DNA from: Malacoraja senta
Lineage: Eukaryota
Assembly: GCA_038087875.1 (NCBI GenBank)
Contig: CM075994.1
Span: 11,162,001 to 11,226,000 of the forward strand
Length of the DNA stretch: 64,000 nucleotides
Direction: 5' to 3'
Below are positions 11,261 through 42,600 of the stretch, piece after piece. Made by a program: the position numbers and the translations under genes. The notes beneath the pieces are model-generated. The model was not told the DNA's origin. It saw only the letters and a list, made by a program, of their open reading frames with translations, and made no database searches. The first letter of the stretch is position 1. Every line of letters begins with the position of its first letter.

Positions 11261-11400
11261 GAGGATATCCACCGGTTTCACCTTCGCTGCGAAGCTGCAG
11301 CGGGGCGCGGGTTCCAGCCGTGGCGCTGGCCAATGGGAGCAGAGCGCGGCTGTGAGTCAGCAGTTGCTGGGTAGAGCGAGGCTGAACAGATTGAGTTTCT
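11261..11400 (+). promoter_or_regulatory. Degenerate copy of the promoter-like module
   Basis: Same sequence with kB changed to GAGGATATCC and putative donor changed to cag|attgag. CCAAT and TGAGTCA retained. Confidence 0.45.
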
Positions 11401-12385
11401 GTCTATGGATAACCCCGCCGCCGCTGCTGCTGATGCTGCCGCCTAAAGGCCGCAGTGGACTGAATGCACAAGATGGACACAAATTACTGGAGTAACTCAG
11501 CGGGACAGGCAGCATTTCTGGAGAGCAGGAATGGGTCCATTTCCCTCCCCACTCACCCCTTAACCCCTCTCTCCCCTCCCCGCTCTACTGTCATCCCTGC
11601 CCCATGCCCTCGCTCTCCCTCTCCCTCTCACCCATTCCCTTCTCCCCCATTTCCCTCCCCCTCTAACCTCCCCAACTCCCCACCCCTTTCCGTCTCCGCT
11701 CTCCTCTCCCCTCCCCTTTCCCTCCCTCTCCCCTCCCCTCCCCTGTCCTCTCTCCCCCCTCCCCTCTACCCTACCACTCTCCACCCCACTCCCCCACTCA
11801 TCCTCTCCCCTTTACCTCTGCGCCATCTCCCCTTCCCTCTCCCGTCCCCCCTCCCCCCCCTGTCCTCCCCCTCTCTCTTCTCCCTCCCCCTCTCCCCTCC
11901 CCTTCCCCTCTCCCCCCCCACTCTCCCTCCCCTCTGCCCTTCCCCTCTGCCCCCTTCCCGGTCCACCTCTCCCTTCCTCTCAGCTCCCCCTCTTCCCACA
12001 CCTTCCCCTCTCTCCTGTCCCCTCACTCTCTCTCAACTCCCCTCCCACTCTCCTCTCCCCTCCCGCTCCCCCCTCCCCCCTCCTCCTCCTTACCTTCTCC
12101 CTCCTCCTTTCTCTCTCCCCCTCTCCACTCTCCACCTCTCCCTCCCACTCTCCTCTCCCCTTTCCCTCCCCTCTCTCCCCACCCCCTATACTCCACCCCT
12201 CTCCCCTCCTCTCAGCCCCTCTCCCCACTCCTACCCCTCTCTCCTCTCCCCTCCCCCTCTCACCCTCTCCCCTCCCCCTCTCCCCTCCCCCTCTCACCCT
12301 CTCCCCTCCCCCTCTCACCCTCTCCCCTCCCCCTCTCTCCTCCCCCTCTCTCCTCCCCCTCTCCCTTCTCCCCCCCACGCTATCA

Positions 12386-12520
12386 GGGGATTTCCACCGG
12401 TTTCACCTTCGCTGCGAAGCTGCAGCGGGGCGGGGCTGCCAGCCGTGGCGCTGGCCAATGGGAGCAGAGCGCGGCAGTGAGTCAGCAGTTGCTGGGTAGA
12501 GCGAGCCTGAACAGGTTGAG
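12386..12520 (+). promoter_or_regulatory. Immune-inducible promoter-like module (best-preserved copy)
   Basis: GGGGATTTCC (NF-kB) 12386-12395; GGTTTCACCTTC (ISRE-like) 12399-12410; GGGGCGGGG 12427-12435; CCAAT 12455-12459; TGAGTCA (AP-1) 12478-12484; possible donor cag|gttgag at 12515. Confidence 0.6.
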
Positions 12521-12747
12521 TTTCTGTCTCTGGATAACCCCGCCCCCGCTGCCGCTGCTGCTGCTGCCGCCTAAAGGCAGTGCACACTCCTTCTATTCAG
12601 TCCGCAGTGGACACCATATTCTGGAGTAACTCAGCGGGACAGGCAGCATCTCTGAAGAGAATGAATGGGTCCATTCCCGTGAGATGCTGCTTGTCCGTTG
12701 AGTTACTCCAGCATTTTGTGTCTATCTTCGGTTTAAACCAGCATCTT

Positions 12748-17200: not shown

Positions 17201-18271
17201 AACTGAACTCAATTTTCTAAATGCGGTCTCACCAACTTCTTATACAACTGCAACATGACCTCCCAACTCTTATACTCAATACCTGACTAATGAAGACCAA
17301 AGTGCCAAAAGCTTTTTGACCACCTTATCTACCAGCGACTCGACTTTCATGGAACCATGCACCTGTACTCCTAGATCCCTCTGCTCTACAACACTACCCA
17401 GAGGCCTACCATTTACTGTGTAGGTTCTGCCCTTGTTCGACGTCCCAAAATGCAACACCTCACACTTCTCTGCATTAAATTCCATCATCCTTTCCTCAGC
17501 CCACCTGGCCAATCGATCTAGATCCTGCTGCACCGTTCACAACCATCTTCACTATCTGCAAAAACCACTAACTTCTCCGCCCTCATTCTCCCTCATCTAA
17601 CTCGCTGACTCACTACCCCCCCCTCCTCTCCTCGGTCTGCACTATCAACATCTCTCTCCTTCTCCATCACACTTCCATGACCCTCAACACCTCTTCACTC
17701 TCTCCCTTCCACCCCAACTGCCCACCCTGTCCCTCCTTGTTTCCCCGCCCCACTCATTCTCTTCCTCCCTCATTGCCCCCCTTCTCCCTCCCTCCGTCCC
17801 CTCTCTGTCTCCCCACTCTCTCTCTCCCTGTGTCCCTACCCCTACTCCCCCCCGGTCGCTCCCCGCTCCCCGTTGGTGAACTTCCGCAGCACCATGCGGG
17901 AGTAGCAGCCGCCGAGCTCCATCAGCTGATGGTGAGTGCCCCGTTCCACCACACGGCCGCCCTCCAGCACCACGATCCTGTCCGCCCGCTGCACTGTCTT
18001 CAGCCGATGGGCGATCACCAGCGCTGCGGCCGCCGGCTCACGCGCCATGGCCCGCTGGATCTGCGGAAAGCGGAGTTTAGTCAGAGCCTGCCCCGTACCC
18101 GCGGCCACCCCAACCCCGCCCGCCCACCTGCGCAAATCCCACACCCGTCCGGCGCCGGCCCACATCGCCCGGCCGCTGGTAGACACCGTCGCGCTGGGAG
18201 ACGGATTGGGGTAGAGTGGGGGAAAGAGCGGGGGGGGGGGGGGGGGGGAGGGGGGGGTGTTGATGGAGGAG
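14276..18271 (-). repeat. Right arm of the inverted duplication; begins exactly at the gap edge
   Basis: Reverse complement of 3156-7154. Homology ends at gtgttgatggaggag, where a CR1 fragment starts. Confidence 0.95.
17842..18060 (-). CDS. TAP2: TAP2 terminal coding exon ([47 protein letters not shown]...GGE*)
   Basis: Acceptor ctttccgcag, H-loop AHRL, TAG stop. Confidence 0.9.
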
Positions 18272-18950
18272 TCTAACATGGGCAGGGCCTTCACGGTGAA
18301 TGGTAGGGCTCTTGACGAGTGTTGAAGAGCAGAGGGATCTAGGATTGCAGTTGCATGGTTCGTTGAAGGTGGTGTCGCAGGTAGATAGGGTGGTCAAAAA
18401 GGCTTTTGGCACATTGGCCTTCATCAGTCAGAGTATTGAATATAGAAGTTGGCAAGTCATGTTGCAGTTGTATTAGACATTGGTGAGGCCGCATTTGGAG
18501 TACTGTGTTCAGTTCTGGGCACCTTGTATAGGAAAGATGTTGTTAAGCTGGAAAGGGTACAGAGAAGATTTACGATGAATTTGCCAGGGCTAGAGGGTCC
18601 GAGCTGAAGGGAGAGGTTGAGTAGGCTGGAGTGCAGAAGGCCGAGGTGATCTTTTATGTATAAAATCATGAGAGGAATAGATCGGGTAGATGAACAGAGT
18701 CTCTTCCCCAGAGTAGATAAATCGAGTGTCAGAGGATTTAGGTTTAAGATGAAGGGGGAAAGATTAAATAGGAGCCCGCGGGCTAGCTTTTTCGCACAAA
18801 GGGTGGTGGGTATGGAACGCGCTGCCAGAGGAGGTAATTTCGGCAGGGACTATCCCAACGTTTAAGAAACAGAGAGACAAGTACATGGAAAGGTCAGGTT
18901 TGGTGGGATATTTACCAAACGCGGGCAGGTGGGATGCGTGTAGCTGGGAT
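18272..18950 (+). mobile_element. CR1 LINE 3' fragment in the last TAP2 intron
   Basis: [19 protein letters not shown]. Confidence 0.9.
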
Positions 18951-19315
18951 ATGTTCAAAAGATCATGTGATAGGAGCAGAATTAGGCTATTCTGCCCATC
19001 AAATCTACTCCGCCATTCATTCATGGGCGGTCCGTGGTTGGGTAATGGTGGGTGGGCAGCAGGTGAATGGGGGGGGGTGAGCGGGTGTGGGCGGGAGAAT
19101 GGTTGGGGACGATGTCTGGGGTTGGGTAGTGGTGGGTGGGGAGGGGGCGCAGGTGGTTGGGGGATGTGTAGATGTGGGTGAGGGTGAGTGGGGCAAGTAG
19201 ATGAGACAACAGCGTGACTGAGCTGACAGTGAGCGTTTGTTCCCCAGAGCTCAGCCCACATTGACGTGCACACGGTGACTGAGCGGCGCGCTGTGGGCAG
19301 GCGGCAGCTGCTCAC

Positions 19316-19452
19316 CGATAGCTCGGTGTGTGTGTCTAAGGAGCTGGTGGCCTCGTCCAGGACCAGAATCCGCGGCTGCCGGACCAGGGCGCGGGCGATA
19401 GCGATCCGCTGCTTCTGTCCTGCCGAGATCAGCCCGCCGGCCTCGCCCACAT
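19316..19452 (-). CDS. TAP2: TAP2 signature/Walker B exon ([45 protein letters not shown])
   Basis: 137 nt, gagcag acceptor, gtgagc donor. Confidence 0.93.
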
Positions 19453-19528
19453 CTGCTCAACGGAGAGACGCCGTTACTAACAACACAGCGAGTGTCCTCA
19501 CGGGCAGAGTGCGGTCACACACAGTGCG

Positions 19529-19810
19529 TGGTCCCCAGTGGAGGTCTATCCATAAGGGATAAGGGTGTCCTTCCCCTTTACATCGGGGACCTGGGGTGGA
19601 GAGTGTTGCACAGGGCTGTGGTGTGTAATACATATTTGACTCAGTTGAGGGACTCGCCAGCCGCCTGTAACTTCTGTGGTGAGGAAGAGACCGTGTTTAC
19701 GTGTATATGGAGTGTGAGAGGTTGCAGCCCCTGTATGAATATCCATGAATGCTGGTCACTGCGGGGGGTTGAGTGCATAAAGATGGCACTATTGTATTAT
19801 AATGATTGCC
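19529..19810 (+). mobile_element. Tx1/L1-clade non-LTR 3' fragment
   Basis: PQWRS; LPLYIGDLGWRVLHRAVVCN; C.FCGEEETVF zinc-knuckle-like region, homologous to 54900-55060. Confidence 0.75.
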
Positions 19811-20029
19811 TGATGTATTGCGACTGCTGAAAGTCTTCGTAACTTCTGCTACACTGTAAATTGCAAATACTGAACCAAGTCCTTGTTAAGAAGGACAAAA
19901 ATAAGAGCGCGGTCCCGTGGACGGTGTGCGTGCCACAGACTTCGAGGTCACACGACGGCGCAAACCATGCCACTGCTGCCGCTGCGTCACAGCAGAGACG
20001 GCACCATTCCTTGAGCACAGGACCCTGGT

Positions 20030-20440
20030 GATGCCCACGCTGGGACCATAGTGATCACACCCTGGTGAACTGCACATTAGGACTGTATTCATCATACCAT
20101 GGTGATGACCACACGAGGACTATAGCGATCAGACCCTAGTGAGTCCCACACGAGTATAGTAATCAGACTCCAGTGAACTGCACACTAGAACTGTAGCGAT
20201 CAGAACCTGGTGATTCCCACACTAAGGCTATATTGACTCCCACACGAGTATAGTGATCAGACGCTGGTGAACTGCACACAGGGACTGCAGTGATCAGACC
20301 CAGGTGATTCCCACACGAGTATAGTGATCAGACTCCAGTGAACTGCACACTAGGACTACAGCGATCAGACCCTGATGATTCGCACACTAAGCCTTATGTG
20401 ACTCCCATACTAGTATAGTGATCAGACCCCGGTGATTTAA
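20030..20440. repeat. ~31-33 bp minisatellite
   Basis: tagtgatcagaccctggtga(a/t)..cacac unit repeated about 12 times. Confidence 0.85.
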
Positions 20441-20566
20441 ATTACTGACTCCACCTGCCACTGTGGTGCCCCATTGTGCCAGTCCCCTGTAGCCGGCACT
20501 GGGCAGTGCCGGGGTGCCACGGCCAGGAGGGCTCCCAGACCCTCTCCCGGAGCGCTGTGACTGTAC

Positions 20567-20725
20567 CTGCGTCGAAGCCCTGGTCCATCCTCTCGATGAA
20601 GTCCCGTGCGCTGGCACTCTGGGCAGCAGCTTCCACGTCTGCCTGCGGGCAGTGCTCCAACCCGTAGCGGATGTTGTCCCGCACCGATAGGGCAAAGAGT
20701 GTCGGCTCCTGACCCACGAGCGCCA
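20567..20725 (-). CDS. TAP2: TAP2 Q-loop exon (VALVGQEPTLFALSVRDNIRYGL...MDQGFDA); one G missing at the acceptor/exon junction
   Basis: Reads cacagTGGCG where cacag|GTG GCG is needed for phase 0. Donor gtacag. Confidence 0.88.
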
Positions 20726-20764
20726 CTGTGGAGAAGTGACAGCAGCTGCCTCAGGGAGCTGGCA

Positions 20765-21410
20765 CCACATGGGCACAGTGTACACGTGGCACATGGGGTT
20801 GGCACTGAGTGTACACGTGTAGCATGGGGCACTGAGTGTACACGTGTCACATGGGGTGGCACTGAGAGTACATGTGTCACATGGGGGCATGCCTTGTACA
20901 TGTGTCACACGGTGGGTGGCACTGAGTGTACACGTGTCACATGGGGGCACAGTGTGTACACATGTCACACGGCGGCATGCCTTGTATATGTGTCACACTG
21001 GGGGTGGGACTGAGTGTACACGTATCACATGGGTGCACACTATACACGTGTCACACACGGCGTGGCATCGAGTGTAGACGTGTCGTATGGGGGCACTCTG
21101 TTCACACATGTCACATGGAGGGTGGCACTGAGTGTACACGTGTCACACGGGCACACTACATGTGTCACACATAGGGTGGCACTGAGTGTGGACACTTGCC
21201 ACACAGGGGCATTGTGTACATGCATCACACGGGGGCACACTGTGTACATGTATCACACGGGGGGGGAGGTACTGTGCGTACACGTATCAGTTGGGGATAC
21301 ACTGTGTACACGCCACATGTTGGCTCTGAGTGCGCAAATGTGTCACACAGGGGCACTGAATGTCTACACGGCACAAGATGGCACAGTGTGTACATGTATC
21401 ACACAAAGGT
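20765..21410. repeat. Minisatellite of ggcactgagtgtacacgtgtcacatggg-like units
   Basis: Tandem ~28-31 nt units filling the intron between two TAP2 exons. Confidence 0.85.
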
Positions 21411-21562
21411 ACAAAACACTATCCACTCACCCCCCACTCACTGTCCTGACCCACCCCTCATTGACCACTGACAACCCCTTCACTGCCCTTTGACACCCCC
21501 GCACTGACCCCTCACTGTCCCAGTGTAACCCCCATGTGTCCTGACCCTCAGTTCCCCCTGAC

Positions 21563-21736
21563 CTTGCTGTGGTAGTACTTGTGCTCGTACTCCTCGATGG
21601 GCCGCCCGTCCAGCAGGATGTGGCCTGACTGAGGCTCGTACAAACGCTGCAGGAGGCTGACGCAGGTGGTCTTCCCCCCTCCCGAGGGTCCCACCAGGGC
21701 CGTCACCTCCCCGGCCCGCACCTCGAATGACACGTC
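21563..21736 (-). CDS. TAP2: TAP2 Walker A exon (DVSFEVRAGEVTALVGPSGGGKTT...YEHKYYHSK)
   Basis: 174 nt, ttgcag acceptor, gtcagg donor, GPSGGGKT P-loop. Confidence 0.93.
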
Positions 21737-22507
21737 CTGCAAACACAGAGGAAGAGTGAGCAATAGAACAAAGCCCCCACTCCCTGCGATGTTGCCAGCA
21801 ACCCCGTGCCCAAGGATAGGTGACCCTCTCTCCCTCCACCACACCCTCCTCTCCCCATCCCCCTTCGCTCCCAACAGCCTTTCACCAGGACCTGACCCAT
21901 GGACCGGACCGGGGACTCTGGCGGTGGCCTGGGACACAGAGATCAGTGTGCGAATGGGAAGTGGAGTTATAATGGCTGAAAGCTGGGAGATCCAGCAGAG
22001 CTGGTTGGAACGAGAGCAAGTGTTCAGCGAAACCTGGTCACCAGTGAAATGGCCCTCTTTCCATTCTCACACTGACCTTCTGTCCTGTGCCTCCTGCATT
22101 GCCACAGTAAGGCCACACACAAACCGAAGGAACAGCACCTCATGTTCCACATAGATAGCTTACAGCCTAACAGTACTGAATTCACCAATTTTTGGTAACA
22201 AACATGCAACATCCCACTGCCCTCCCTGCCCCACTTCCTCTATCTCCTTCCACCTATATCTCTTCCTCTGCTTCACATTTTGTGCTTTTTATCTTCCTCC
22301 CATCTCTGGCCTGTGTCCACCCATCTGCCATCAAACCTCCCCCACTCGCCTATATCCACCTATCACTTACCAGGCTTTGTCCCACCTACTGCCCTTCCAG
22401 CTTTCTCTCCCCTATTACAATTAGTCTGAAGAAGGGTGCTGACCCGAAACATCACCTATACATATCCAGAGATGCTGCCTGACCCGCTGAGATACTCCAG
22501 CACTTTA

Positions 22508-22640
22508 AAGGGCCTGTCCCACTTGGGCGTTATTTGCGTCTCATTTACGCGACATCATTTACGCGTCATGACGCACGACGCGTAACGCGCGCATGGCATG
22601 CATTACGCGCGCATGGCGCATGGTGAGACGTGGTGTCGTA
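22508..22640. mobile_element. One end of a putative non-autonomous DNA transposon (MITE-like), truncated by CR1
   Basis: ttaaagggcctgtcccactt terminus followed by CpG-rich acgcg repeats; the partner TIR was not seen. Confidence 0.4.
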
Positions 22641-23737
22641 GGCAGTGACAGGAAGCAAAGAGTAGGAGTGAACGGGTCCTTGGGTGAATGGCAGGCAGTT
22701 GCGAGTGGAGTGCCGCAAGGCTTTGTGTTGGGGTGCAACTGTTTACCATATATATTAATGATTTGGAAGAGGGAATCAGGAGCAACACTAGCAAGATTGC
22801 GGAGGACACGAAGCTGGGTGGCAGTGTGAACTGGGAAGAGGATGTTAGGAGGTTGCAGGGTGACCTGGACAGGTTGAGTGAGTGGGCAGATGCGTGGCAG
22901 ATGCAGTATAATATAGATAAATGTGAGGTTATCCACTTTGGCGGCAAAAACAAGGGGGCAGATTATTATCTCAATGGGGTTAGGTTAGGTTAGGTAAGGG
23001 AGAGGTACAGCGAGACCTGGGTGTCCTTGTGCACCAGTCAGTGAAAGTTGGTGTGCAGGTACAGCAGGCAGTGAAGAAAGCTAATGGAATGTTGGCCTTC
23101 ATAACAAGAGGATTTCAGTATAGGAGTAAAGAGGTTCTTCTGCAGTTGTACAGGGCTCTGGTAAGACCACAACTGGAGTATTGTGTACAGTTTTGGTCTC
23201 CTAATTTGAGGAAGGACCTTGTGATTGAGGCAGTGCAGCGTAGGTTCACGAGATTGATCCCTGGGATGGCGGGACTGTCATATGAGGAAAGATTGAAAAG
23301 AGTAGGCTTGTATTCACTGGAGTTTAGAAGGATGAGGGGATATTTATAGAAACATATAAAATTATAAAAAGGAGTGGACAAGCTAGATGCAGGAAAAATG
23401 TTCCCAATGTTGGGCGAGTCCAGAACCAGGGGGCCACAGTCTTAGAATAAAGGGGAGGTAATTTAAGACTGAGGTGAGCAAAACCTTTTCACCCAGAGAG
23501 TTGTGAATTTGTGGAATTCCCTGCCACGGAGGGCAGTGGAGGCCAAATCACTGGATGGATTTAAGAGAGAGTTAGATAGAGCTCTAGGGGGCTAGTGGAT
23601 TCAAGGGATATGGGGAGAAGGCAGGGACGGGTAATTGATTGGGGACGATCAGCCATGATTACAATGAATGGCGGTGCTGGCTCGAAGGGCCGAATGGCCT
23701 CCTCCTGCCCCTATTTTCTATGTTTCTATGTTTCTAT
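22641..23737 (+). mobile_element. CR1 LINE 3' half with (tttctatg)n tail
   Basis: ORFs 22688-22993 and 23029-23349. Confidence 0.95.
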
Positions 23738-24545
23738 GCCCTCGGGTCCTGGCAACATCCTCATCAATCTTCTTTGCACCCATTCCAGCTTAACAATATA
23801 TTTCCGATACCAGAGTGAACAAAAGTGAACACAATACACCAAGTGCGGCCTCTCCTGTGTCTTGCACAACTGTAACATAACCTCCCGACTTCCATACTTC
23901 ATACTCTGACTGATGAAGGCCAATGTGCCGCAAGCCTTCTTGGCCACCCTCTCTACCCGTATCACCACTTTCAAGGAACTATGTATCTGCACTTCCAAAT
24001 CCCTCTGCTCTACAATGCTCACAGAGCACCAACCAGTCACTGTGTAGGTTCTGCCCTAGTTAGACTTTCCATAAAGCAACACCTTACATGTATCACATAA
24101 AACATGATTTGTCATTGGTATAGATGACAAACAGCAAAGCGGCGGCAAGTAAGAATGTCCTTGTTCCTTTGGTGGTACATGTTCATTAGTGATAGGAACA
24201 TAATTAGGCTATTCGGCCCACCAAGTCTACTCCCCCATTCAAACATGCCTGATCTATTTTTTCCTTTTCATCCCATTCTCCTGCCTTCGCCCCATAAGCT
24301 CTGCCACCCATACTAATCAAGAATCCATATCTGCCTTAAACATATCCATTGATGGCCTCCACAGCCTTCGGTGGCAATGAATTCCACAGATTCACCACCC
24401 TCTGACTGAAGTAATTCCTCCTCACCTCCTTCCTAAAGAAATATCCTTTAATTCTGAGGCTATGACCTCTGGTCCTAGACTCTGCCATGAATGGAACATC
24501 CTCTCCGCATCCACTTTATCCAAGCCTGTCATTATCCAGTACGTT
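23738..24545 (-). mobile_element. Two CR1 3' fragments
   Basis: ORF 23726-24040, plus a reverse CR1 tail from 24190. Confidence 0.8.
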
Positions 24546-24689
24546 TCTCTACGCAGGTACCTGTGACAACTAAACACTTGTGACTTTTCATGCAGCTTCA
24601 GGTGTTTAACTCCAGGGTGCTACACAGTGGCAAGTTCTGGTTGTGGTGGAAATGTCCTTTCTTCAGCATTGACCCTGGGCTGACTGGGA

Positions 24690-25500
24690 TGTCCTGTGTG
24701 TTTACTGTCCACACCTGATCCCTGGGTACATTGGGCACAAGCGATACACATACCCCAGTTTGCATTGATGGCGCCAAAGTAGAGATGGTTGAAAACTTCA
24801 AATTCCTATGGGGTTAATATCACCAACAACTTCTCCTGGACCACCCATATTGAAGTAACAACCAATAAAGCACACCAACTCCTCTACATCCTTAGAAGTT
24901 TTAGGAAGTTTGGCATGTCCCCTACAACTCTCACCAACCTGCACAAATGCACCATAGAAAATATTTTATCAGGATGCATGACAGTTTGGTTTGGGAACAG
25001 CTCCATCCAAGACCTCAAGAAATGTCAGCTAAATCAGCCCAAACCATCACACAAACCAACCTCCCTTCCATTGACTCCATGTATACCTCACTCTGCCTTG
25101 ACAAGGCCAGCAGCATAATCAAGGACAACTTGCACCCTGGCCACTCTATCTTCTCCCTCTCCCATCGGGCAAAAGGTATAGAAGTGTGAAAACGCACACC
25201 TCCAGATTCAGGATCAGTTTCTTCCCAGCTGTTATCAGGCGACTGAATCATCCTACCACAACCAGAGAGCAGCGCTGAACTACTATCTACCTCCTTGGAG
25301 ACTCTCACTATCCTGGATTGGACTTTGCTGGCTTTATCTTGCACTAAACGTTATGTCCTTATCATGTATCTATACACTGTAAATGGGTCGATGGTAACCA
25401 TGTATTGTCTTGCTGTTGACTGTTAGCACGCAACAAAAGCTTTTCACTGTGGAGGCCAATATTTCACTATACCTCGGTACACGTGACAATAATAAACTAA
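24690..25500 (+). mobile_element. Rex1/Babar-like LINE 3' fragment
   Basis: SWTTHI...KAHQLLYILRSFRKFGMSPTTLTNLHKCTIENILSGCMTVWFGN. Confidence 0.75.
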
Positions 25501-25519
25501 TTAACCATCGTGACATTAC

Positions 25520-25708
25520 CTGTAAAACTTGGACGTCGGGCTTCGTTGGGTAGGAGAAAGACACATCCTTGAACTCCAGGTGACCCTGCAGAGATTCTGG
25601 CACCAATGTCCCGTCAGTGCGAACACTGGGCTCACGGTCGAGGTATTCAAAGACTTTCTCCGCTGCTCCCACAGAATGGGTCATTTCCGAGTACATGCGG
25701 ATAAGAGT
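25520..25708 (-). CDS. TAP2: TAP2 exon (TLIRMYSEMTHSVGAAEKVFEYLDREP...FKDVSFSYPTKPDVQVLQ)
   Basis: 189 nt, cacag acceptor, gtaatg donor, open frame. Confidence 0.93.
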
Positions 25709-25754
25709 CTGTGCAGTGAGAAAGCGGTGATCATGGGGGACACTGGGATAAGGC

Positions 25755-27137
25755 AGCACACACACACACACAGACCTCCCCAGCACCGAGTGCACCACAC
25801 TCACGTACACACACTCACTCATACACACATACACAGACCTCCCCAGCACCGAGTGCACCACACTCACGTACATACACTCACTCACACACACATACACAGA
25901 CCTCCCAAGCACCGAGTGCACCACACTCACTTACACATACTCACTCATACACACATACACAGACCTCCCCAGCACCGAGTGCACCACACTCACTTACACA
26001 CAGATACACAGACCTCCCCAGCACCGAGTACAGTACACTCACATACACACACTCCACCGGCTGGAGCCGTCAGCGATGGCTGCCTCACCAACGGTCTGTC
26101 TGTCTTTTTGTCTTTTTTGTTATTTTTAGTGTTTTAAAAGTATGTGTTAATGTTCTCTGGTTTTTTTTTTGTGGTGGGTGGGGGAGGGGATCAGAGGAAA
26201 CTTATTTCAATCTCTTACCTTGCCAGAGATACGATTGTTTTCCGGATCGTATGTCCGGTCGCTCTTCGGCCTAACATCATGGAGCTGGCGGCCTTGCTCG
26301 AGACTGACTTTGAGCCCCACCGCGGGGCCGTGCACTTACCATCGGAGCCTGCGATACCTTACCTGGTGTAATGATGTGACCCGAACACACATTAAGATAC
26401 AACACATATTTATTAAATCACTTACAGCATAGGATCAGCAATACGTTACAGCTCCGAGCTGCTATATCTACTAGCTAGTGTAGGCGAGCTCTTGATACTA
26501 TAAAGCACGTACTAGACGGAGCTACTACTAACACGCACTATGATTGGCTAGCATGCAATAGCCAATTTACACCTGGGTTCGATGCTCCAGCCGAGGCTTG
26601 CGGATTTCAACATCGAGAAGCTTGCAGCCTCGGGTGGAGACCGATGTCGGGAAGCTCCAAGCCGCAGAAGGATCGACTAGCCCCGACCCGGGATCTGATC
26701 GCCCGGCGCGGGGTAGCTGAGATGCGGGAGTTTGATCACCCCGATGCGGAGCCCGACCGCCGCCTACTGGAGCCAAGATCGTGGAAGAACAAAGAAGGGA
26801 AGAGATTGAACTTTTTTTTCGCTTTCCATCACAATGAGTAATGTGGGGGAGTCACTGTGGTGGATGTTTATGTTAAAATATATTTTCTGTGTATTGTTGC
26901 TTTTTATTGGTATGACTGTACGGCAAATCAAATTCCTCGTATGTTGCAAAACATACTTGGCTAATAAAGTGTGATTATGATTATGATACACACACACACA
27001 TAGAAACCACCCCAGCAACATGCACCACACTCACGTACACACACTCACACATACACACAGACCTCCCCAGCACCGAGTGCAACACACACACACACACACA
27101 CGCACGCACGCACGCACGCAGGCACGCACGCACGCAG

Positions 27138-27540: not shown

Positions 27541-27626
27541 CCGGTACTGCCAGTTAATCCCAAACGTCCGCCCCGGATCAACCAGAAGAGTAGCGGGAGC
27601 GGAAGGTCATCGAGAAGGAAACATAC

Positions 27627-27755: not shown

Positions 27756-27929
27756 CTGTGTAAACACAGGGGCAGGGAGAAGGCAGGGTCAGACACGCAA
27801 CACTGCCAACACACGGACAAAGGAGGGGCTAGCAGGAATGGCTCGTACAACACTTCACGTTCAGTCTGATCTGGAGTGGGATAGAGGATTGATGAGGGCA
27901 GGGCAGTGGGATTTGTCTAAATGGACTTT

Positions 27930-29470
27930 AGCACAACCTCTGGCTAGGTTCCACATGACAGGCTAGTCTGTGAGTTAGATCACGCGGGATCCAAGGACAC
28001 TGGTCAATTGGATTCAAAATTGCGTCAAAGCATAGTGGTGGAGGATTGTTTTCTGATTGGAGACGTGATCAGTGGAGTGCCGCAGGGGTCGGTGCTGGGC
28101 CCACTACTGTTATCTACGTTAATGATTTGTGAGTAAACGTGGAGATGACACCAACATTGTTGGTATACAGGACAGTGATGAAAGATATGTTCATTCACTA
28201 CAGCATCCAGATCAGTTGAGAAGGTGGGTCGGGTCAAGGAATGGCAAACATCATTTAAATTTGACTATTTGTAAAGGGTACAGAGAAGATTTATGAGGAT
28301 GTTGCCAGACCTCGAGGGTCTAAACTACAGTGAGAGGTTGAGCAGGTTGGGACTCTATTCTTGGAGAGCAGGAGGATGAGGGGTGATCTTAGAGACGTGT
28401 ATAAACTCATGAGAGGAATAGTTCGGGCAGATGCACAGAGTCTCTTGCCCAGAGTAGGTGAATGGAGGACCAGAGAACATAAGTTTAAAGTAAAGGGGAA
28501 AAGATTTAATAGGAATCTGAGGGGTACCTTTTTCACACAAAGGATGGTGGGTGTATGGAACGAGCTGCCAGCGGAGGTAGTTGAGGCAGAGACTATCCCA
28601 ACATTTAAGAAACACTTAAACAAGTACATGGAAAGGACAGTTTTGGAGGGATATGGGCCAAACGTGGGCAGGGGGAGTTAGAGTAGCTGGGACATGTTGG
28701 CCGGTGTGGGCAAGTTGGTCTGAAGGGCCTGTTTCCATGCTGCATCACTCTACGACAAGTGTGAGGTGTGGGGCTTTGGCATTTCAAACCGGGCAGGTCT
28801 TAGAGTAAATTGTAGAGCTCTGGGGAGTGTTGTAGAACAGAGAGAACAGGGAGTACAGGTGCACGGTACTAAAACGTGGTGAATCAGATGGACAATGTGG
28901 TGAAGACGGCATTTGGCACGGTTGTCTTCATTGGGAAGGATATTGAGGATAAAAGTTAGGATATCATGATGGAACAGGGCAAGTCATTAATGAGATCATA
29001 CTTGGAGTAACGTGTGCATTCTGATTACCCAGTTTGGGAAGGATGTCATTAAGTTGGAAAGAGTGCAGAAGATACTCATTAGGCTGTTACTTGACTTCTT
29101 CCCTACAGCCATCAGGCTATTAAACACTACAATTTCCTAAGCTATGAACTACAATAGACTATTATTACTATTTATATTATTATTATTATTGCACTGTTAT
29201 TGTTTGTTCTTTTTTTTCTGAGCTTTTGTTATATTATTATTATGATTACATATTCTGTTGTCTTGCAGCAAGTAAGACTTTCATTGTTCTATTTGGGACA
29301 TATTACAATAAATCACTCTTGACTTGAGTTATAGGGAGAGGTTGGATAGGCTGGGATTTTATTCTTTGAACTTTGGTGCCTGAGGAGTGAACTTATTGAG
29401 GTGTACAAGATCATGAGGGGTGGGAGTGGATAAAGTGAACATTTACCGTATGTTTCTCAGGGTAAATGAT
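27930..29470 (+). mobile_element. Nested CR1 fragments (younger copy 28275-28755 inside an older one)
   Basis: ORF 28361-28681 and degenerate RT motifs on either side. Confidence 0.8.
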
Positions 29471-29474
29471 TAAA

Positions 29475-30595
29475 CATAGAAACATAGAAACCTAGAAAAT
29501 AGGTGCAGGAGTAGGCCATTCGGTCCTTCGAGCCTGCACCACCATTCAATATGATCATGGCTGATCATCCAACTCAGTATCCTGTACCTGCCTTCACTCC
29601 ATACCCCCTGATCCCTTTAGCTACCAGGGCCACATCTTACTCCCTCTTAAATATAGCCAATGAACTGGCCTCAACTACCTTCTGTGGCAGATAATTCCAC
29701 AGATTCACCACTCTCTGTGTGAAAAATGTTTTTCTCATCTCGGTCCTAAAAGACATTCCCCTTATCCTTAAACTGTGATCCCCAGTTCTGGACTTTCCCA
29801 AGATCGGGAACAATCTTCCTGCATCTAGCCTGTCCAACCCCTTAAGAATTTTGGAAGTTTCTATAAGATCCCCCCTCAATCTTCTAAATTCTAGCGAGTA
29901 CAAGCCGAGTCTATCCAGTCTTTCTTCATATGAAAGTCCTGCCATCCCAGGAATCAGTCTGGTGAACATTCTCTGTGCACCCTCTATGGCAAGAATGTCT
30001 TTCCTCAGATTAGGAGACCAAAACTGTACGCAATACTCCAGGTGTGGTCTCCCCAAGACCCTGTACAACTGCAGTAGAACCTTCCTTCTCTTATACTCAA
30101 ATTCTTTTGCTATGAATGCTAACATACCATTCGCTTTCTTCACTGCCTGCTGCACCTGCATGCCTACTTTCAATGACTGGTGTACCATGACATCCAGGTC
30201 TCGTTGTATCTGCCACCATTCAGATAATAGTCTACTTTCCTGTTTTTGCCACCAAAGTGGATAACCACACATTTATCCACATTATACTGCATCTGCCATG
30301 CATTTGCCCACTCACCCAACCTATCCAAGTCACCTTGCAGCCTCCTAGCATCCTCCTCACAGCTAACACTGCCCCCCAGCTTCGTGTCATCCTCAAACTT
30401 GGAGATGTTGCATTCAATTCCCTCATCCAGATCATTAATATATATTGTAAATAGCTGGGGTCCCAGCACTGAGCCTTGCGGTACCCCACTAGTCACTGCC
30501 TGCCATTCTGAAAAGGATCCGTTTACTCCTACTCTTTGCTTCCTGTCAGCCAGCCAGTTCTCTATCCACATCAATACTGAACCCCCCAATACCGT
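29475..30595 (-). mobile_element. CR1 LINE 3' half
   Basis: ORFs 30170-30589 and 29637-30272; (catagaaa)n tail. Confidence 0.95.
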
Positions 30596-32202
30596 GATTC
30601 CAAAAGTAGAGGGTATGGACTTAAAATGAGAGGGAAAATATTAAGAGAGAACACTCAGAGAATAGTATGTATCTGGAATGAGCTGCCAGGGGAAACAATT
30701 ATGATTTTCAAAATTATGACTTTCCTTTTGACCCCGTTTATATTTCGCACTGCCTTGGAATAATCAAGGATCAGTCTCACGCTGGTCACTCCCTCTTCTC
30801 CCCTCTCCCATCAGGTAAGAGGTGCAGAAGTTTGAGAACACACACCTGCAGATTCAGGGACAGTTTCTTCCCAGCTGTTCTCAAGCAATTGATCCATCCT
30901 CTCATCAGCTCGAGTGCGATCTTGGCCTCCAATCTACCCCATTTGAGACCTTTGGGCTATCTTTAACCGGATTTCAATGTTATATCTTTGCACTAAATGT
31001 TATATTCTATTTATCTATCTATACATATCTAAAACTGTGATTTTGTGCTCTTTTGGTTTGCACAGTTTTTCTATTTGCGCAAAAACGGTATGCGATAGCG
31101 GTACGATTTTTGGTCAGCTCACTCGCCGTTCTCTTGTGCTGCGAGTGCAACAAGTTTCATTCAGACCGGTAGTATATTGTAAAAGTTAGCGAGGTTCAAA
31201 AATCGTAAAAACCGTGCGTGCGAAGATCGATTTCCTCTCCTGCCAATCAGCGCCGCGTGGATTGGTCTCTTCTCCTGTCACTCCCCGGGACGGTCCGCCC
31301 CTTCCTGCGCAATCCTGTCTTTAATGGAGCTGAGGGACGCTGCGGGTGCCGACGGATGTCTCCAACCGGACACAATTTTCGGAAGGACCAGAAGCTGCCA
31401 AGCCCGGCACCGGAGATGTCGCCAAATGGAAAGCAGAGAGACTGATCCCGGCACAGGAGAGTATCCACTGTGAGTCCCAAACGCACCGCCATCACAAGGT
31501 CCCGCAGCTCCAGCCCCTTTCCCTCTTGTCCCCTCGCTGGCTCCTGTCCCACTCCTCCATGATACCCGCACTCTCCCCCATGGCTCTTCCCCGTCTTTTC
31601 TCCGAGCTCTCCCCCCACTCCACAAAACCCCACCCCTCCTCCCACATGCCGGCGTGGCCGTAGCTGTTGGTACTTCCTGGCCGAGCCGAGGATCCGAGGC
31701 CTGGCTCTAAGGGCGGCAACGGCTGATGCTCCACCGGGGCATACAAGGAGAATTAGGAGGTAGATGCACCAAATGCAGGCAAATGGGATTAGCCCGGAAT
31801 GCGAACTGAGTTGGCATGAACGAGGTGGGTTGAAAGGCCTGTTTTACTAATGCTGTACGGCTGTATAACTTTAGTTTAATATTTAGTTTAATAGTAGTTT
31901 AATATACAATTATATATTCACCTTGTATCTGAAACAGACAGATTCCATAAAGTATTGGTCTCTTAAACTATCCTGAATAAATTTAAATCTACTTTTGCCA
32001 AGTTGAATGATCTATTCTACATAGTGATTACGTCACCTTCAAAAAAGACACAAAGAGCTGGAGTAACTCAGCGGGTCAGATAGCTTCTCTGGAGAACTTC
32101 CCTGGTAATGTTTCCGGGCTGGGACCCTCCCACAGTGGAAAGTAGGGCCCTGATCTGAAATGTTATGCCTTATCCTCATAACTCCTGACACCCGTACTAT
32201 TA

Positions 32203-32500
32203 GGGCATCACGGTGGTGCAGCGCTTGCAGCGCCAGAGACCCGGGTTCAAACCTGACTATGGGTGCTGTCTGTACGGAGTTTGTACGTTCTCCCTGTTAC
32301 CGTGTGTGTTTTCTCCGAGATCTTCGGTTTCATCCCACACTCAAATACGTACAGGTATGTAGTTTAATTGGCTTGGTGTACGTGTAAATTGTCCCTTGTG
32401 TCTGTAGGATAGTGTTAATGTGCGGGGTGATTGCTGGGCAGCGAAGAGTCGGTGGGCCAAATGGCGTGTTTCCGCGCTGTATCTCTAAACTAAACCAAAC
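32203..32500 (+). mobile_element. tRNA-derived SINE (HE1-like); further copies at 33357-33655(+), 34050-34185(+), 35850-36075(-), 44540-44812(-)
   Basis: Shared head, core and tail sequence. Confidence 0.8.
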
Positions 32501-32991
32501 AAGAATCTATCTCTGCTATCGATTTTGCCTCCACAGCCTTCTGTGGCAACAGGTGTATCCACACAGTGCAGTTGGAATTGGCTAAGGGGAGCAGATTTGA
32601 GTGCTAGGATATCAGTGGTAGGGACGAGTGATCAAGGGAGCGAGAGGGAGGGGGAAGGGGGAGGGAGAGGAGAGAGAAGGAAATGAGAGAGAGAATAGGG
32701 GAGTGGGAGGGAAGGGGAGGGAGGGATGGGGTGAGGGAGGGAAGGGGAGAGGGACGGTGAGGGTGAAGGAGTGAGGATGAGGTAAAGGAGGAGGGAGGGA
32801 AGGAAGGAGGAAAATAGGGAAGGTAGGGCTAAAGAGAGGGAGGGAAAGAGGGAGGGAATGTAAGGAAGTGAGGAGAGAGAAAGATGGGGACAAATGCTGG
32901 TGAGAAAGAGAGATAGAATGGAAAAGAAAGCAAGAGAAGGAAAGAGAAAGACCAAGAGAGAGATGAAAGTGGGAGAGCTCTTTGCACCTAC

Positions 32992-33172
32992 CCTGTGACA
33001 CAGGACGTAGACGGCTCTGACCAGGTCACGTTTATTCTTCAGCTGGTGCGTTTCCTGCAGCTTCTTCTCAAACAGTTCTGACTCCAGGTCCTCGGCCGCG
33101 AAGCTCCTGACAGTTTTTATGGAGGAAACGACCTCACCTGGCGATCGAATCCTGAACTTGCAGCACCAGCCT
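32992..33172 (-). CDS. TAP2: TAP2 exon (RLVLQVQDSIA / GEVVSSIKTVRSFAAED...RDLVRAVYVLCHR) with a 17-nt frameshifting deletion
   Basis: Acceptor ttggacag, donor gtaggt. 181 nt vs expected 198. The 5' frame runs into TGA after DSIAR; the 3' part is in another frame. Confidence 0.88.
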
Positions 33173-35432
33173 CTGTCCAAAACAAAAGCCATCCTCAGTT
33201 CCAGTAGCATCCCAGGGAGGAACCAGTTTACAATGGGGGAGTTGGGTGCAGCCTCACAGGTGGACAGGGTGGTGAAGAAGGCTTTTCACATGCTGCTCTT
33301 CATCAGTCAGGGTATTGAATATAGAAGTTGGGACGTTATGTTACAGTTGTACTTGAGGGCACGGTGGTGCAGTGGCAGAGTTGCTGCCTTACAGCATTTC
33401 CAGGACCCGGTTTCCATCCTGGCTACGGGTGCTTGTCTGTACAGAGTTTGTACGTTCTTCCCATGACCGCATGGGTTTTCTCTGACAACTTTGGTTGCCT
33501 CCTACACTCCAAAGGTGTAGAGGTTTGAAAGCTAATTGACTTTGGTGTACATGTAAAATTGTCCTCAGTGTAGGATATGCAGAGATCACTGGTCAGTGTC
33601 GACTCAGTGGCCCGAAAGTCCTGTTTCCATGCTGTATCTCTAAACTAAAACTAAACGTTGGTGAGTCCACATTTGGGGTATTGTGTTCGTTTTGGTCACC
33701 CTTCTTTATTCCTTGGATTGCAAGAAGGCCAGGGTGACCTTATAGTGGGGTATAAAATCATGAGGGGAATTGCTAAGGTAAGGTAATAGACAAGATTAGT
33801 CTTTTACCTATTGGGTAGGAGAATCAAGAACTCGAGAGCATAGTTTTAAGGTGAGAAGGGAAAGATATAAAAGGACCTTGAGTGGCGAAACGTTTTCATT
33901 CAGTGGGGTGGTGACTACATGGAATGAGGTGCCAGAGGAGGTAATTGAGACAGATACTAACAGCATTTAAAAGACACGTGGCCATTTAAATGGGATAGGA
34001 AAGGTTTCGAGGGATGTGGCTTAAATTCAGGTAAATGGGACTGGTACAATGGGCGGCAGTGGAGCTGCTGCCTTACAGCGCTACAGACCCGGGTTCGATA
34101 CTGACTACGGGTGCAGTCTGTTTTTGTGTTCTCCCATGTCCTGCGTGGGTTTTCTCCGTGATCTCTGGGTTCTTCCCACACTCCGGATAGGGGGAATGGG
34201 TGACGTTTGGGGTCGACACCCTTCTTCAGGCTGATGTCAGGGGAGTGGGCGGGACAAAGATAGAATGTAGTCAGAGACAGTAGGACAGGTGGGAGAATTG
34301 GGAAGAGAATGGTATGGAGAGAGAGGGAAAGCAAGGGTTATTTGAAGTATTACAAAGGGGGAGGTCAGGGAGGATGGTGAACACACGGCCAAGGTGGGAG
34401 TCGTGGAGACTCGGGTAAGACGACGGCTGCGGCCTGCTAGTGGGCGGTGGAGTGGCGACGGTCGCAGAGTCACTGGTGGAGCCCCGCGGGGGAAACGTTT
34501 CCCCTATCCAGTCCCCCCCCCCCCCGCAGGCCTCCACCAGCGACTCTGCCGAAACTTGTCATTCCACCACCCACCAGCGGGCAGCACCCTTCGCCTTACC
34601 CGAATCCCAGGCTCAGCATGGAGCCCACAATCTTCACAATGTAGACTCCCACACCACGGGGTCTGACTGTGCTTGGTCCTACTGCTTCCCCCCCCCCCCA
34701 CCTCCTGCAGGGAACGTCAGTGCGGGTCCCACTGGTTCTTCCCCTTTTACACAGGTGCCCCCACCTACTCCCCACCCATACTATAGTCCTCCTGCCCCCT
34801 CCTCTCTGAACACCCACCATTCCCCCACCAGACATCGCCTCAGCCTCCATCCACTCACCTGCCATCCTCCGACCTCAACCCCCCACCCTTGCCGTGTGTT
34901 CACCATCCCCCCTGACCTCCCCCTTTGTGATATTTCAAATAGCCCTTCCCAGTTCTCCCACTAGTCTTACTGTTCCTGACTACATTCTCTCTCTGGCCCA
35001 CCCCTTCCCCTGACATCAGCCTGAAGAAGGGTCCCGACCCGGAACATCACCCATTCCTTCTATCCAGAGATGCTGCCCGACCCGCTGAGTTGCTCCAGCG
35101 TTTAAAATGATTTTGTTTCTACAGGTTTGTAGGTTAATTGGCTTCGGAAAATTTGTAAATTGTCCCTAGTGTGTGTAGATTAATGCCAATGTGCGGGGAT
35201 CACTGTTCAGCAAGGACTCGGTGGGCTGAAGAGGTTGTTTCCGTGCTGTATCTTTAAACTAAACTGAGATGGTGAATCAGGTTTAGCATGGACATTGGGC
35301 CAAAAGGCCTGTTTTTGTGCTGTGTGCCTATGTGACTTTGTACATGATAAATAGGTTTTGATTCCAGGAGCTGCAGCTGTTTGTGGTTTCTTTCCGACGG
35401 TGACGTGTGGTCTGTGGTGGCTGTGTACTTAC

Positions 35433-35639
35433 CATATGATATCGGTTTGTACAACTTCTGAATCAGTATGGTGAGGGGAGATTCGATGAAGATCAGGAGG
35501 GAGAGCTTCCAGGAGAGGCTGAACATAAAGGAAATGATTCCCAGCGTGTTCACCAGATTGCGCAGCAAGATGTTGGCATTGAGTGCAAGCGAGCGGCTCA
35601 TGAGTGTGGTGTCCGTGGAGAGGCGGCTGGTCATGTCCC
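35433..35639 (-). CDS. TAP2: TAP2 transmembrane-domain exon (GDMTSRLSTDTTLMSRSLALNANILLRN...QKLY), one extra base near the 3' end
   Basis: Acceptor tgtccgcag, donor gtaagt. 207 nt; removing one A from TACAAACCG gives QKLYNRYHM ending in phase 0. Confidence 0.9.
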
Positions 35640-39008: not shown

Positions 39009-39208
39009 NNNNNNNNNNNNNNNNNNNNNNNNNNNNNNNNNNNNNNNNNNNNNNNNNNNNNNNNNNNNNNNNNNNNNNNNNNNNNNNNNNNNNNNNNNNN
39101 NNNNNNNNNNNNNNNNNNNNNNNNNNNNNNNNNNNNNNNNNNNNNNNNNNNNNNNNNNNNNNNNNNNNNNNNNNNNNNNNNNNNNNNNNNNNNNNNNNNN
39201 NNNNNNNN
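39009..39208. other. Assembly gap (200 N)
   Basis: N run. Confidence 1.
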
Positions 39209-39554
39209 AGTCAAGGGAAATGGGGAGAAGGCAGGAACGTGGTACTGATTGTGGATGATCTGCCATGATCACAGTGAATGGCGGCGCTGGCTCGAAGGAC
39301 CGAATGGCCTACTCCTGCAATTATTGTCTTAGATACTGGTTTAAACCGAAGATAGACACAAAATGCTGGAGTAACTCAACGGACAAGCAGCATCTCACGG
39401 GAATGGACACATTCATTCTCCCCAGAGATGCTGCCTCTCCCGCTGAGTTACTCCAGAATATGGTGTCTACTGCGGACTGAATAGAAGGAGTGTGCGCTGC
39501 CTTTAGGCGGCAGCAGCGGCAGCAGCAGCGGGGGCGGGGTTATCCAGAGACAGA

Positions 39555-39691
39555 AACTCAACCTGTACAGCCGCGCTCTCCCCAGCAACTGCTGACTCAC
39601 AGCCGCGCACTGCTCCCATTGCCCAGCGCCACGGCTGGCAGCCGCGCCCCGCTGCAGCTTCGCAGCGAAGGTGAAACCGGTGGAAATCCCC
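39555..39691 (-). promoter_or_regulatory. Minus-strand copy of the promoter-like module pointing toward the TAP2 body; partial copies at ~40081-40116 and ~42440-42520
   Basis: ggaaatcccc 39682-39691, gaaggtgaaacc, tgactca and ctcaacctg are the reverse complements of the module motifs. Confidence 0.55.
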
Positions 39692-42600
39692 AGGCAGCGT
39701 GGGGGAGGGGAGAGGGGGGGGGAGGGGGATGGGAAGGGGCAGGGGAGAGGGGGAGAGGGGAAGGGGAGAGGAGAGGAAGAGGGGAGAAAGCAGACGGGGA
39801 GGGGAGAGGGGGAGGAGGGGAAGGGGAGAGTGGGAGGGAGGGGTGGAGAGGAGGTGGAGGAGGGGACAGGGTAAGGAGGTGGGAAGGGGAGAGGGGAAGA
39901 GCTAAAGGGGAGAGGAGGAGAGGGGGAGGGGAATGGAGAGTAGTAGGGGAGGGGGGCAGAGAGGGGTAGGGAGAGGGAAGGGGCAGAGGGGAAGGGAAAG
40001 GGGAGGTGAGGAGGGGGAGGGGGCAGAGGGGATGGGGAGGGTTGTGGAGAGGGGGAAGGGAGAGGAAACGCGGAGGGGGAAGCTTCGCAGCGAAGTTGAA
40101 ACCGGTGGAAATCCCTTGGCACCGTGGGGGAGGGGAGAGGGGGGGGAGGATAGAGGGGCGGAGAGAGGGGGAGGGGGAGGAGGGAGGGGAGGAGAGAGGG
40201 AGGGGGGAGAGGAGGAGAATAGAGGGGGAGGAGAGATGGGGAGGAGAGAGGGGGAGGAGGAGAATAGAGGGGGAGAGAGATGGGGAGGAGAGGGGGAGGG
40301 GAGAGTGGGAGGGGAGAAGAGAGGGGGAGGAGAGAGGGCGAAGGTGAGTGGGAGGGGAGAGGGGGAGTGGAGAGGGGGAGGGAGAGGGGAGTGGAGATGG
40401 TGAGGGGAGTGCGGGAGGGGAGGAGAGAGAGAGAGGGGTGAGAGGGAGTGAGAGGGGTAGGAGAGGGAGGGAGAGCGGGTGGGGGAGGGGTGTAGCGGGG
40501 GAGGAGAGAGGAGGAGGGGATGACAGAGGGAGAGGGGGAGGAGGAGGAGAGAGGGAGGGAGGGAGGGGGAAGACGAGGGTGAGGGATTGTGGGAGGTTAG
40601 GGGAGAAGAGGAGTGACGGGGGAGGGGAGAAGGAGGGATGGGGAGCGGAGAGAGGGGAGAGGGGGAGGGGAGGAAGATGGAGCGGAGCGGTGAAGGGGGT
40701 TAGTGGGAGGGGTGAGAGCGAGGGGGAGGAGTGAGAGAGAGGGGAGAGAGGGAGAGGTGGAAGGGAAGGGGAGAGTAGAGGGGAGGGCGGAGGGGAGAGA
40801 GGGAAAGGAGAGGGGCACGGATTGAGGTGAAGGGAAGAGGAGAGGGGAAGGAAGAGGACTGATGCAGCGGAGTGGGATGGGCGAGAGGGGGAGAGAAAGG
40901 GGGAGGGGAGGGCGGGTAGAGAGGGGGAGAGGGAGAAGAGTGGAAGCGGATAGGGTGAAGGGAGAGGGGAGGGAAGATGAAGAGGGAGAGGACGAGGTGG
41001 AGGGGCAGTGGGATGGGATAGAGGGGAAGTAGATGGGAGCGGAGGTGACGACGAGGAGAGGGGAAGCGGGGGGAGAGTGTAGAGGGGGGGGGAGTGAGGG
41101 AGAGCAGTGGGATGGGAGAGGGGGAGATGTGGGAGCGGGAGGGTGGAGAAAGAGAGTGGAGAGAGGGGGAGGGGAGGAAAGGGAGTGGAAGTGTAGGGAT
41201 ATGGTTAAGGGAGAGGGGGAGGGGAGAGGGAGGGAGAGAGAGGGGGTGTGGGAGAGGGGGGAGACGAGAGCGGAGTGTGAGGGGAGAGAGGGTGGAAAGG
41301 GAGGGGGAGAGGGAGTGGAGGAGGGACGGGAAGAGGGGGAGGGGAGAGTGGGGATGTAGAGGGGGAGGGGAGGAGGAAGAGAGGCGAGGGGAAGAGGAGA
41401 GTGGAGGGAGGTAGAGGGGGACCGAGAAGGGGGAAGAGGAGAGGGCGAGAAATAGGGGAAGGAGAGGGGACAGGGAGGGGAGATGGGGTGAGGATAGGGA
41501 GAGGGGGGAGTGGGAAGTGGGAACGGAAGGCGAGAGGGAAATGGAGATGTGAGAGAGGGGGAGGGCGAAATGGGGAGGGGTGAGAGGGAGTGGAGTGTGA
41601 GGGGAGGGGGTGAATGGGAGGGGGAGAGGGGCGATGGAGTGGAGGAGGGACGGGAAGAGGGGGAGGTGAGTGAGGGATGTAGAGGGGAGAGGAGGGAGGA
41701 GGAGAGGGGAGGGGATGGGGAGGTGAGAGAGGGGAGCGGGAGGGAGGGAGAGGGGGAAGGAGGAGGGATTGGGGGAGGGTAGAGAGATGGGGGCAGATGG
41801 GAGGCGGGAGAGGGGGGTGATAGAGGAGTGGGAAGGGGGGGGTAGAAAGGGGAGGGGGAGAGGGGGACGGGAGAGAGGGAGGGGGTAAGGGGAAAGAAGT
41901 GTAGAGAGGTGAGAGGGTGAGAGGAAGAGGGGTGAGAGAAGGGGAAAAGGGAGAGGGAGAGGAGGGGAGAGGGGACGGAGAGGGGGCGGAAGGAGGGAGG
42001 GGAGAGGGTGGGAGAGGGGAGAGGTGAAGGGGAGGGGAGGAAATAGCGGAGATGGCAGACGGGGAGGGGAGGGGGAGGAGGGGAAGGGGAGATTGGGAGG
42101 GGGGTGGAGGGAGGTGGAGGGGAGAGGGTAAAGAGGTGGGAAGGGAGAGGAGAAGAGCTAAAGGGGAGAGAGAGAGGGGGAGGGGAATGGGGAATGGGAG
42201 GGAGGGGAGCGGAGAGGGGAGAGGGAGAGGGGAGGGGCAGAGGGGAAGGGGAAGGGGAGGGGTGAGGAGGGGGCAGAGGGGACGGCAAGGTTATGGAGAG
42301 GGGGGAAGGGAGAGGAGACGCGGAGGGGGAAGGAGAAGGGAAGGGGATGTGGAGAGGAGAGGCGGAGAAGGAGAGGGGCGGGGAAAGCGGGGGGGGGGGG
42401 GAGAGGGGTGAGTTGGGGTGGGTGCAGGGGGAGACACCTGCTCCAATTGGTCAGCGCCACGGCTGGAAGCCGCGCCCCGCTGCAGCTTCGCAGCGCAGGT
42501 GAAACCGGTGGAAATCCCCTGGCAGCCTGGGGAGTGGAGAGAGGGAGGAAGAGGGAGAGGAAGGGCGAGGGGGAAGGGAGAAGGGAGGGGAGAGGGGTGA

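Follow-up and report, generated by a model that had tools for sequence, protein, structure and literature searches.

SXY modules, built from S, X1, X2 and Y boxes, are known at TAP1 in mammals; teleost class I promoters have been described with W/S, X2 and Y boxes. In the mouse, as set out in PMC4374748, the boxes of H2-K (S box TAACCTG) lie 15, 1 and 18 bases apart, with the spacing of H2-Eb being one base shorter. For the NLRC5-type module of BTN3A2, PMC7753138 gives an S box (CAACGTT) positioned 15 bases from X, and 17-18 bases as the usual distance between X and Y; published SXY modules have S about 15-16 bases from X. Here, we describe a short island that recurs within a 64,000-nucleotide stretch of the skate Malacoraja senta (hereafter the window; contig CM075994.1 of assembly GCA_038087875.1, positions 11,162,001 to 11,226,000), which also holds broken copies of TAP1 and TAP2. 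Judged by its sequence, the island matches a major histocompatibility complex (MHC)-type SXY module, with S, X1, X2 and Y at the exact spacing of mouse H2-K, and it is probably the upstream promoter of skate TAP1, copied together with broken TAP1/TAP2 blocks by local duplication.

On its minus strand, the island copy at 12386 reads S (CAACCTG)-15-X1 (CCCAGCAACTG)-1-X2 (TGACTCA)-18-Y (ATTGG), followed beyond the Y box by a GC-rich stretch, an imperfect site resembling interferon-stimulated response elements (ISREs) and a consensus NF-kB (kB) site. Order and orientation of the four boxes are fixed, and the S-X1 spacing of 15 and the X-Y spacing of 18 bases are found in three of three whole copies. 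A 25-position query derived from the S, X1, X2 and Y boxes of mouse H2-K and H2-Eb (PMC4374748), run across the entire window with up to 6 mismatches allowed, returned these three whole copies and nothing else (2 mismatches out of 25 in the 12386 copy, 3 each in the 11261 and 39691 copies). The best score among 300 shuffled windows was 4, none of the 300 reaching 3, and not one of 20000 shuffles of the island itself reached 3 mismatches. An SXY match with precisely this spacing would not be expected to arise by chance. The S box agrees with that of H2-K at 6/7 positions, and at 5/7 each with those of BTN3A2 and class II H2-Eb.

Apart from order, orientation, the 15/1/18 spacers and the S box, the skate island has in common with mouse H2-K, as given in PMC4374748, an ISRE-like site adjoining S. 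It differs in an X1 box nearer to that of class II H2-Eb (CCCAGCAACTG vs ACTAGCAACTG), in an X2 box reading TGACTCA, in the reversed direction of the ISRE-like site beside S, and in a further ISRE-like site plus a kB site located downstream of Y rather than upstream of S. The proposed SXY-type control of skate TAP1 has its counterpart in the common NLRC5 peak of mouse Tap1/Psmb9 (PMC4374748). The human two-way promoter of TAP1 and LMP2 (PSMB9), according to PMC2191963, likewise carries a kB site and a GC-rich box (GC box) at its TAP1-proximal end, whereas no PSMB9 was found in the skate window and the skate island is amplified and separated from the ATG exon by kilobases. The UBA class I promoters of salmonids (PMC1971071, PMC7573153) share an upstream assembly of ISRE, W/S, X2 or site alpha, and Y/enhancer B, but are described there as driving teleost class I heavy chains; for salmon cells, PMC7573153 argues for induction via IRF1 rather than via an enhanceosome and questions the role of the latter in fish. 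The kind of element is therefore already known, while its occurrence in cartilaginous fish appears to be unreported: a literature search found no report of an SXY module from this group among matches judged mostly by title or the start of the abstract, with subscription journals outside its scope. The words 'promoter' and 'pseudogene' do not occur in the main text of PMC10751288, which maps the elasmobranch class Ia region, nor do 'shark', 'cartilaginous' or 'jawed' occur in PMC11755879.

Copies of the island and their boxes

A pattern search located the kB/ISRE core five times, with 0-1 mismatches each, at 11263-11291 and 12388-12416 on the plus strand and at 39661-39689, 40086-40114 and 42489-42517 on the minus strand (mean expectation 0.00; no match in 100 shuffles of the window). 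An earlier, sequence-only reading of this DNA had listed five copies of a kB, ISRE, GC-box, CCAAT and AP-1 module; the five cores stand, but only three of the five copies (11261, 12386 and 39691) are whole islands, the other two being partial. That reading had followed the strand of the core, whereas the defining structure is the SXY on the opposite strand. Its 'AP-1' site is X2, its 'CCAAT' is Y, and its splice 'donor' cag|gttgag corresponds to the S box in reverse complement, so that a non-coding exon ending there is unsupported. Measured against the splice-donor consensus, this sequence is aberrant at two positions (T at +3, A at +5). Nor does the proposed layout of a class I enhancer A/ISRE apply, as the kB site and the ISRE named in it lie downstream of Y and not upstream of S.

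By motif reading, the copy at 12386..12531 (minus strand) is the sole one with every box intact. Along that strand it comprises an ISRE-like site (12519-12531), the S box CAACCTG (12512-12518), X1 plus X2 (12478-12496), the Y box ATTGG (12455-12459), a GC box (12427-12435), a further ISRE-like site (12399-12410) and the kB site (12386-12395). The whole island at 11261..11404 (minus strand) retains X1/X2 (11353-11371) and the Y box, has an altered S box (CAATCTG, 11387-11393) and, just as the sequence-only reading had it, lacks the kB consensus and the GT. In the third whole island, at 39546..39691 (plus strand), S (39559-39565), X1 (39581-39591) and X2 (39593-39599) are followed by a broken Y box (ATTGC, 39618-39622), an ISRE-like site (39667-39678) and a kB site (39682-39691). 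The partial island at 40081..40130 (plus strand; the 40116 copy) keeps the ISRE-like and kB sites alone, both of them altered: the kB site is short of its first G and the ISRE carries one substitution. The other partial island, at 42438..42532 (plus strand; the 42520 copy), consists of the Y box, the GC-rich part, the ISRE-like site and the kB site, without S, X1 and X2. Persistence of the kB-ISRE core in the truncated copies, another point of the earlier reading, thus holds to the extent that both cores are detected with no more than one mismatch, albeit with the changes just given for the 40116 copy. The canonical GC box GGGGCGGGG is found in one of the four copies spanning that position, the other three reading GGGGCGCGG, and the Y box ATTGG is intact in the 12386, 11261 and 42520 copies but broken in the 39691 copy. 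Scored by the kB consensus, three of the five copies contain the site GGGGATTTCC.

A coding role for the island was rejected, as none of the six open reading frames (ORFs) spanning it had a Pfam match. An Rfam search and an exact scan of metagenome contigs each returned 0 matches.

TAP remnants and the candidate target

Between two assembly gaps (14076-14275 and 39009-39208), a TAP2-like pseudogene of eight exons, starting at residue 246, extends over 17845..35639 on the minus strand. Its exons match skate TAP2 proteins (Amblyraja, Leucoraja) at 89-97% identity, which identifies the window as a skate class I region. As assembled, the first surviving exon has one base too many and the next lacks 17 bases and contains a stop; residues 1-245 of TAP2 were not found within the window. 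The last TAP2 exon recurs at 3361..3576 (plus strand), within an inverted duplicate of 4 kb (3156-7154 vs 18271-14276). TAP1 is represented by a pseudo-exon at 48486..48702 (plus strand), comprising a splice acceptor, an ATG at 48491 and a GT donor at its end, but frameshifted, joining TAP1 residues 1-40 to 387-395 and 406-423. Since this ATG lies only 5 bases past the acceptor, an upstream exon is needed. A second remnant at 51646..51677 (plus strand; residues 381-388 and the exon end) belongs to a tandem repeat of the region. The 48486 exon had previously been called TAP2-like. This identity was ruled out: in protein comparison the sole match, one of eight candidates, was to an Amblyraja TAP1-like protein, and the residue blocks map to TAP1. 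A PDB search with the 48483-48695 frame gave 0 matches.

In the right-hand contig, the S-to-Y direction of the 39691 copy points to the TAP1 remnant 8.8 kb away, and in both duplicated blocks the module is directed at sequence from the TAP1 side, its kB site lying at the end nearer TAP1. The SXY module was upstream of the start site at every NLRC5 target in the mouse. With TAP1 as the gene downstream of the SXY, an earlier puzzle, namely that no plus-strand copy precedes the 48486 exon, is removed. In the left-hand contig, 8112..9488 (minus strand) is an inverted paralogue of 43555-44806, i.e. of the DNA between the islands and the TAP1 remnant, and 7341..7511 (minus strand) is an inverted paralogue (86%) of 50515-50672 and 53354-53524, which lie behind the two TAP1 remnants. 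The island copies of this contig hence accompany DNA seen elsewhere between island and TAP1 and behind TAP1. Its order would read island, deleted TAP1, TAP2 3′ end, that is, the tail-to-tail order of the sawfish, the nearest relative with coordinates, as tabulated in the supplement of PMC10751288, an account of the elasmobranch class Ia region in which TAP1 adjoins TAP2. The copies had also been described as aimed at the gaps around the TAP2 body; the two gaps exist, but the one facing the 12386 copy borders the 3′ and not the 5′ end of TAP2. While the gene identities and the duplication are observed, TAP1 as the target is what we infer.

As assembled, TAP2 (minus) and TAP1 (plus) diverge from the 39691 copy, as they would if the island were a two-way promoter of head-to-head TAP1/TAP2 and the missing first coding exons of TAP2 fell in the gap at 39009-39208. 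Such pairs exist: reedfish tap1 and tap2a are listed head to head with 20 bases between them, as is one lungfish pair with 98. Human TAP1 and LMP2 are served by a single promoter (PMC2191963), and TAP1 and TAP2 proteins are recorded on equal-length scaffolds in two skates. Nevertheless, we regard a two-way promoter as unlikely, given that the TAP2/TAP1 adjacency crosses a gap, that the sawfish genes are tail to tail, that the TAP2 side of both blocks enters a repeat and a long interspersed nuclear element (LINE) directly, and that the proposed donor coincides with the S box. Tandem copies of a block ordered as in the left-hand contig would give rise to the same head-to-head appearance across the gap.

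The 6-9 kb separating the islands from the TAP1 ATG exon, with another GC-rich island in between (47283-47460), would also fit a distal SXY enhancer, or an orphan promoter of some other class I-pathway gene (class Ia, PSMB8 or PSMB9) that was lost or lies outside the window. In the sawfish, TAP and PSMB genes are reported inside the annotated span of a class Ia gene, and the mouse Tap1 peak is common to Psmb9 (PMC4374748). However, Pfam searches of 272 ORFs (266 from non-repeated sequence and the six across the islands) yielded ABC transporter, LINE, retroviral and weak stray matches only, with none to class I or proteasome families, and a catfish proteasome domain had no match in the window, both tests being weak for short exons. 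In addition, the mouse MHC as surveyed in PMC4374748 yielded no NLRC5-bound intergenic enhancer. We therefore hold an enhancer or orphan promoter to be quite improbable. Sawfish PSMB9, as shown in PMC10751288, is head to head with PSMB8, not with TAP1.

By analogy with mammals (roles taken from PMC7922096), a skate TAP1 promoter of this type would be bound by RFX at X1, CREB/ATF at X2 and NF-Y at Y, which together would form a platform for the co-activator NLRC5, while IRF1 and NF-kB might add induction by interferon and TNF. The transcript would begin on the far side of Y and be joined to the TAP1 ATG exon via a non-coding first exon and an intron of 6-9 kb; bound factors and activity are, like this start, what we infer from the arrangement of boxes.

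Ahead of the TAP1 ATG exon by 0.4-1.2 kb, a GC-box-rich switch point from pyrimidine to purine tracts (47283-47460) and an ISRE-like site (48069-48090) constitute a possible alternative TAP1 promoter, and behind the TAP1 remnant, 48696-51193 and 51671-54061 form a tandem duplicate (85%) that includes long arrays of a six-base unit. On the TAP2 side, 2.2 kb ahead of the first surviving TAP2 exon, lies a CpG island (37790-38130, minus strand) whose observed/expected ratio is 0.92. It carries, on the TAP2 strand, a strong GTAAGT donor at 37886 and could serve as a replacement first exon; the surviving exon just named is also where an Amblyraja TAP2-like model (P0007) starts. The TAP2 exon at 21560-21742 is 93% identical to skate TAP1 and 97% to skate TAP2, the TAP1 match of the other exons being 46-55%. 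Skate TAP1 and TAP2 thus appear to share this nucleotide-binding exon, possibly through gene conversion. A CpG-rich island at 5390-5530 (plus strand; inverted twin at about 15900-16040), which lies downstream of TAP2's 3′ end and runs the same way, combines a GC box and ATTGG with a TATA-like run 38 bases on; it looks like a separate core promoter, after which no gene was found.

Genomic setting and probable decay of the copies

As the sequence-only reading had stated, the islands are embedded in purine and pyrimidine tracts (92-97% pyrimidine or 90-93% purine). Pyrimidine tracts surround the 11261 copy and precede the 12386 copy (11010..12370, plus strand), whereas purine tracts between and behind the right-hand copies (39706..43900, plus strand) are internally duplicated along with the partial islands. 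A high-copy interspersed repeat (39410..39469, strand not assigned) adjoins the island but lies outside it. For comparison with sequencing data, four of 24 listed public runs, from four organisms (none of the 24 being on record as RNA), were aligned to 39405-39722. The island was present in all four, one run having no cover at the ISRE/kB end. Every contig aligned at position 39622 carries the intact Y base; ACCTG, X1, X2 and kB have no variant listed, and a single run of the four shows changes at both ISRE-like sites.

Its flanks of high-copy repeat and LINE, up to 14 different contigs at one site in a single run, and a 4-kb inverted duplicate whose differences are mostly small gaps, in the manner of a misjoined second haplotype, are what one would expect if the island were a piece of a transposon, or its copy number mainly an assembly artefact, with incidental motifs. 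In the same four runs, though, summed depth, which does not equal copy number, was 2.5-6800 for the island as against 0.35-30 million for the adjacent repeat, and the whole copies differ from one another by 6-7%, beyond read error. Together with the low chance expectation for the spaced boxes, this renders a transposon or artefact origin very improbable. The island does not belong to the high-copy repeat beside it, and its earlier description as a locally amplified MHC class I-pathway regulatory element was borne out. The 4-kb duplicate contains 13 substitutions and 28 gaps and stops exactly at the contig end. Part of the arrangement may hence be a misjoined haplotype, although the 6-7% divergence of the islands is too much for that alone.

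Several observations weigh against an upstream promoter of TAP1. The SXY query, albeit built from mouse boxes alone, was devised post hoc, after the likeness had been noticed, and from two promoters only. The distance from a whole copy to the TAP1 ATG exon is 8.8 kb, the copy's kB site is immediately followed by purine tracts, donor candidates on the TAP1 side (39671 and 39699) are weak, and none of the four runs, none of them RNA, contained a splice joint inside the island; loose contig ends, among those listed, came from the adjacent repeat. TAP1 is readable here as broken copies only, with no intact skate TAP1 locus, and the head-to-head pairs of reedfish and lungfish keep TAP2 a possible target. 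Moreover, the two blocks are 94.4% identical over the island, 94.7% over the flank and 92.6% over the LINE piece they share. Since the island is thus on a par with flank and LINE, no selection is seen on these copies. Variable positions are likewise not significantly rarer in boxes than in spacers (3/52 vs 9/81, p=0.37, from the 12 of 30 variant rows falling in 39559-39691), the figures for the SXY alone being 2/30 vs 5/34 (p=0.43).

Among the whole copies, the 39691 copy has lost Y and the 11261 copy S and kB, whereas the 12386 copy is intact but its gene is gone. Given that no TAP copy is unbroken and that conservation of the islands does not exceed that of their LINE flank, the copies in this window are likely decaying duplicates of a TAP1 promoter.

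Evolutionary implications and other features of the window

The exact mouse spacing beside skate TAP1 suggests an arrangement older than the split between cartilaginous and bony fishes. A broader scenario, which we consider possible but doubtful, is that a canonical NLRC5-type SXY with mammalian spacing has been kept at skate TAP1, so that enhanceosome control would already have existed in the jawed-vertebrate ancestor; the switch would later have been amplified with TAP1-TAP2 blocks, and intact orphans such as the 12386 copy may still act as immune-inducible enhancers of surviving TAP or class I genes. The island offers a 150-base test piece with natural S, Y and kB mutants. The locus is also a record of how TAP1/TAP2 became duplicated and decayed in skates, which are absent from the published elasmobranch MHC map (PMC10751288), from which Amblyraja is described as left out because its tap genes are on unplaced scaffolds.

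Two further features lie at the right-hand end of the window. A GC-rich tandem array at 61079-62339 has a unit of ~370 bases, with copies ~71% alike and no Rfam match. At 55500-59440, RNase H and integrase zinc-finger matches mark a decayed remnant of a retroviral or long terminal repeat (LTR) element, in which 57969-58132 is repeated in inverted orientation at 58955-59123.

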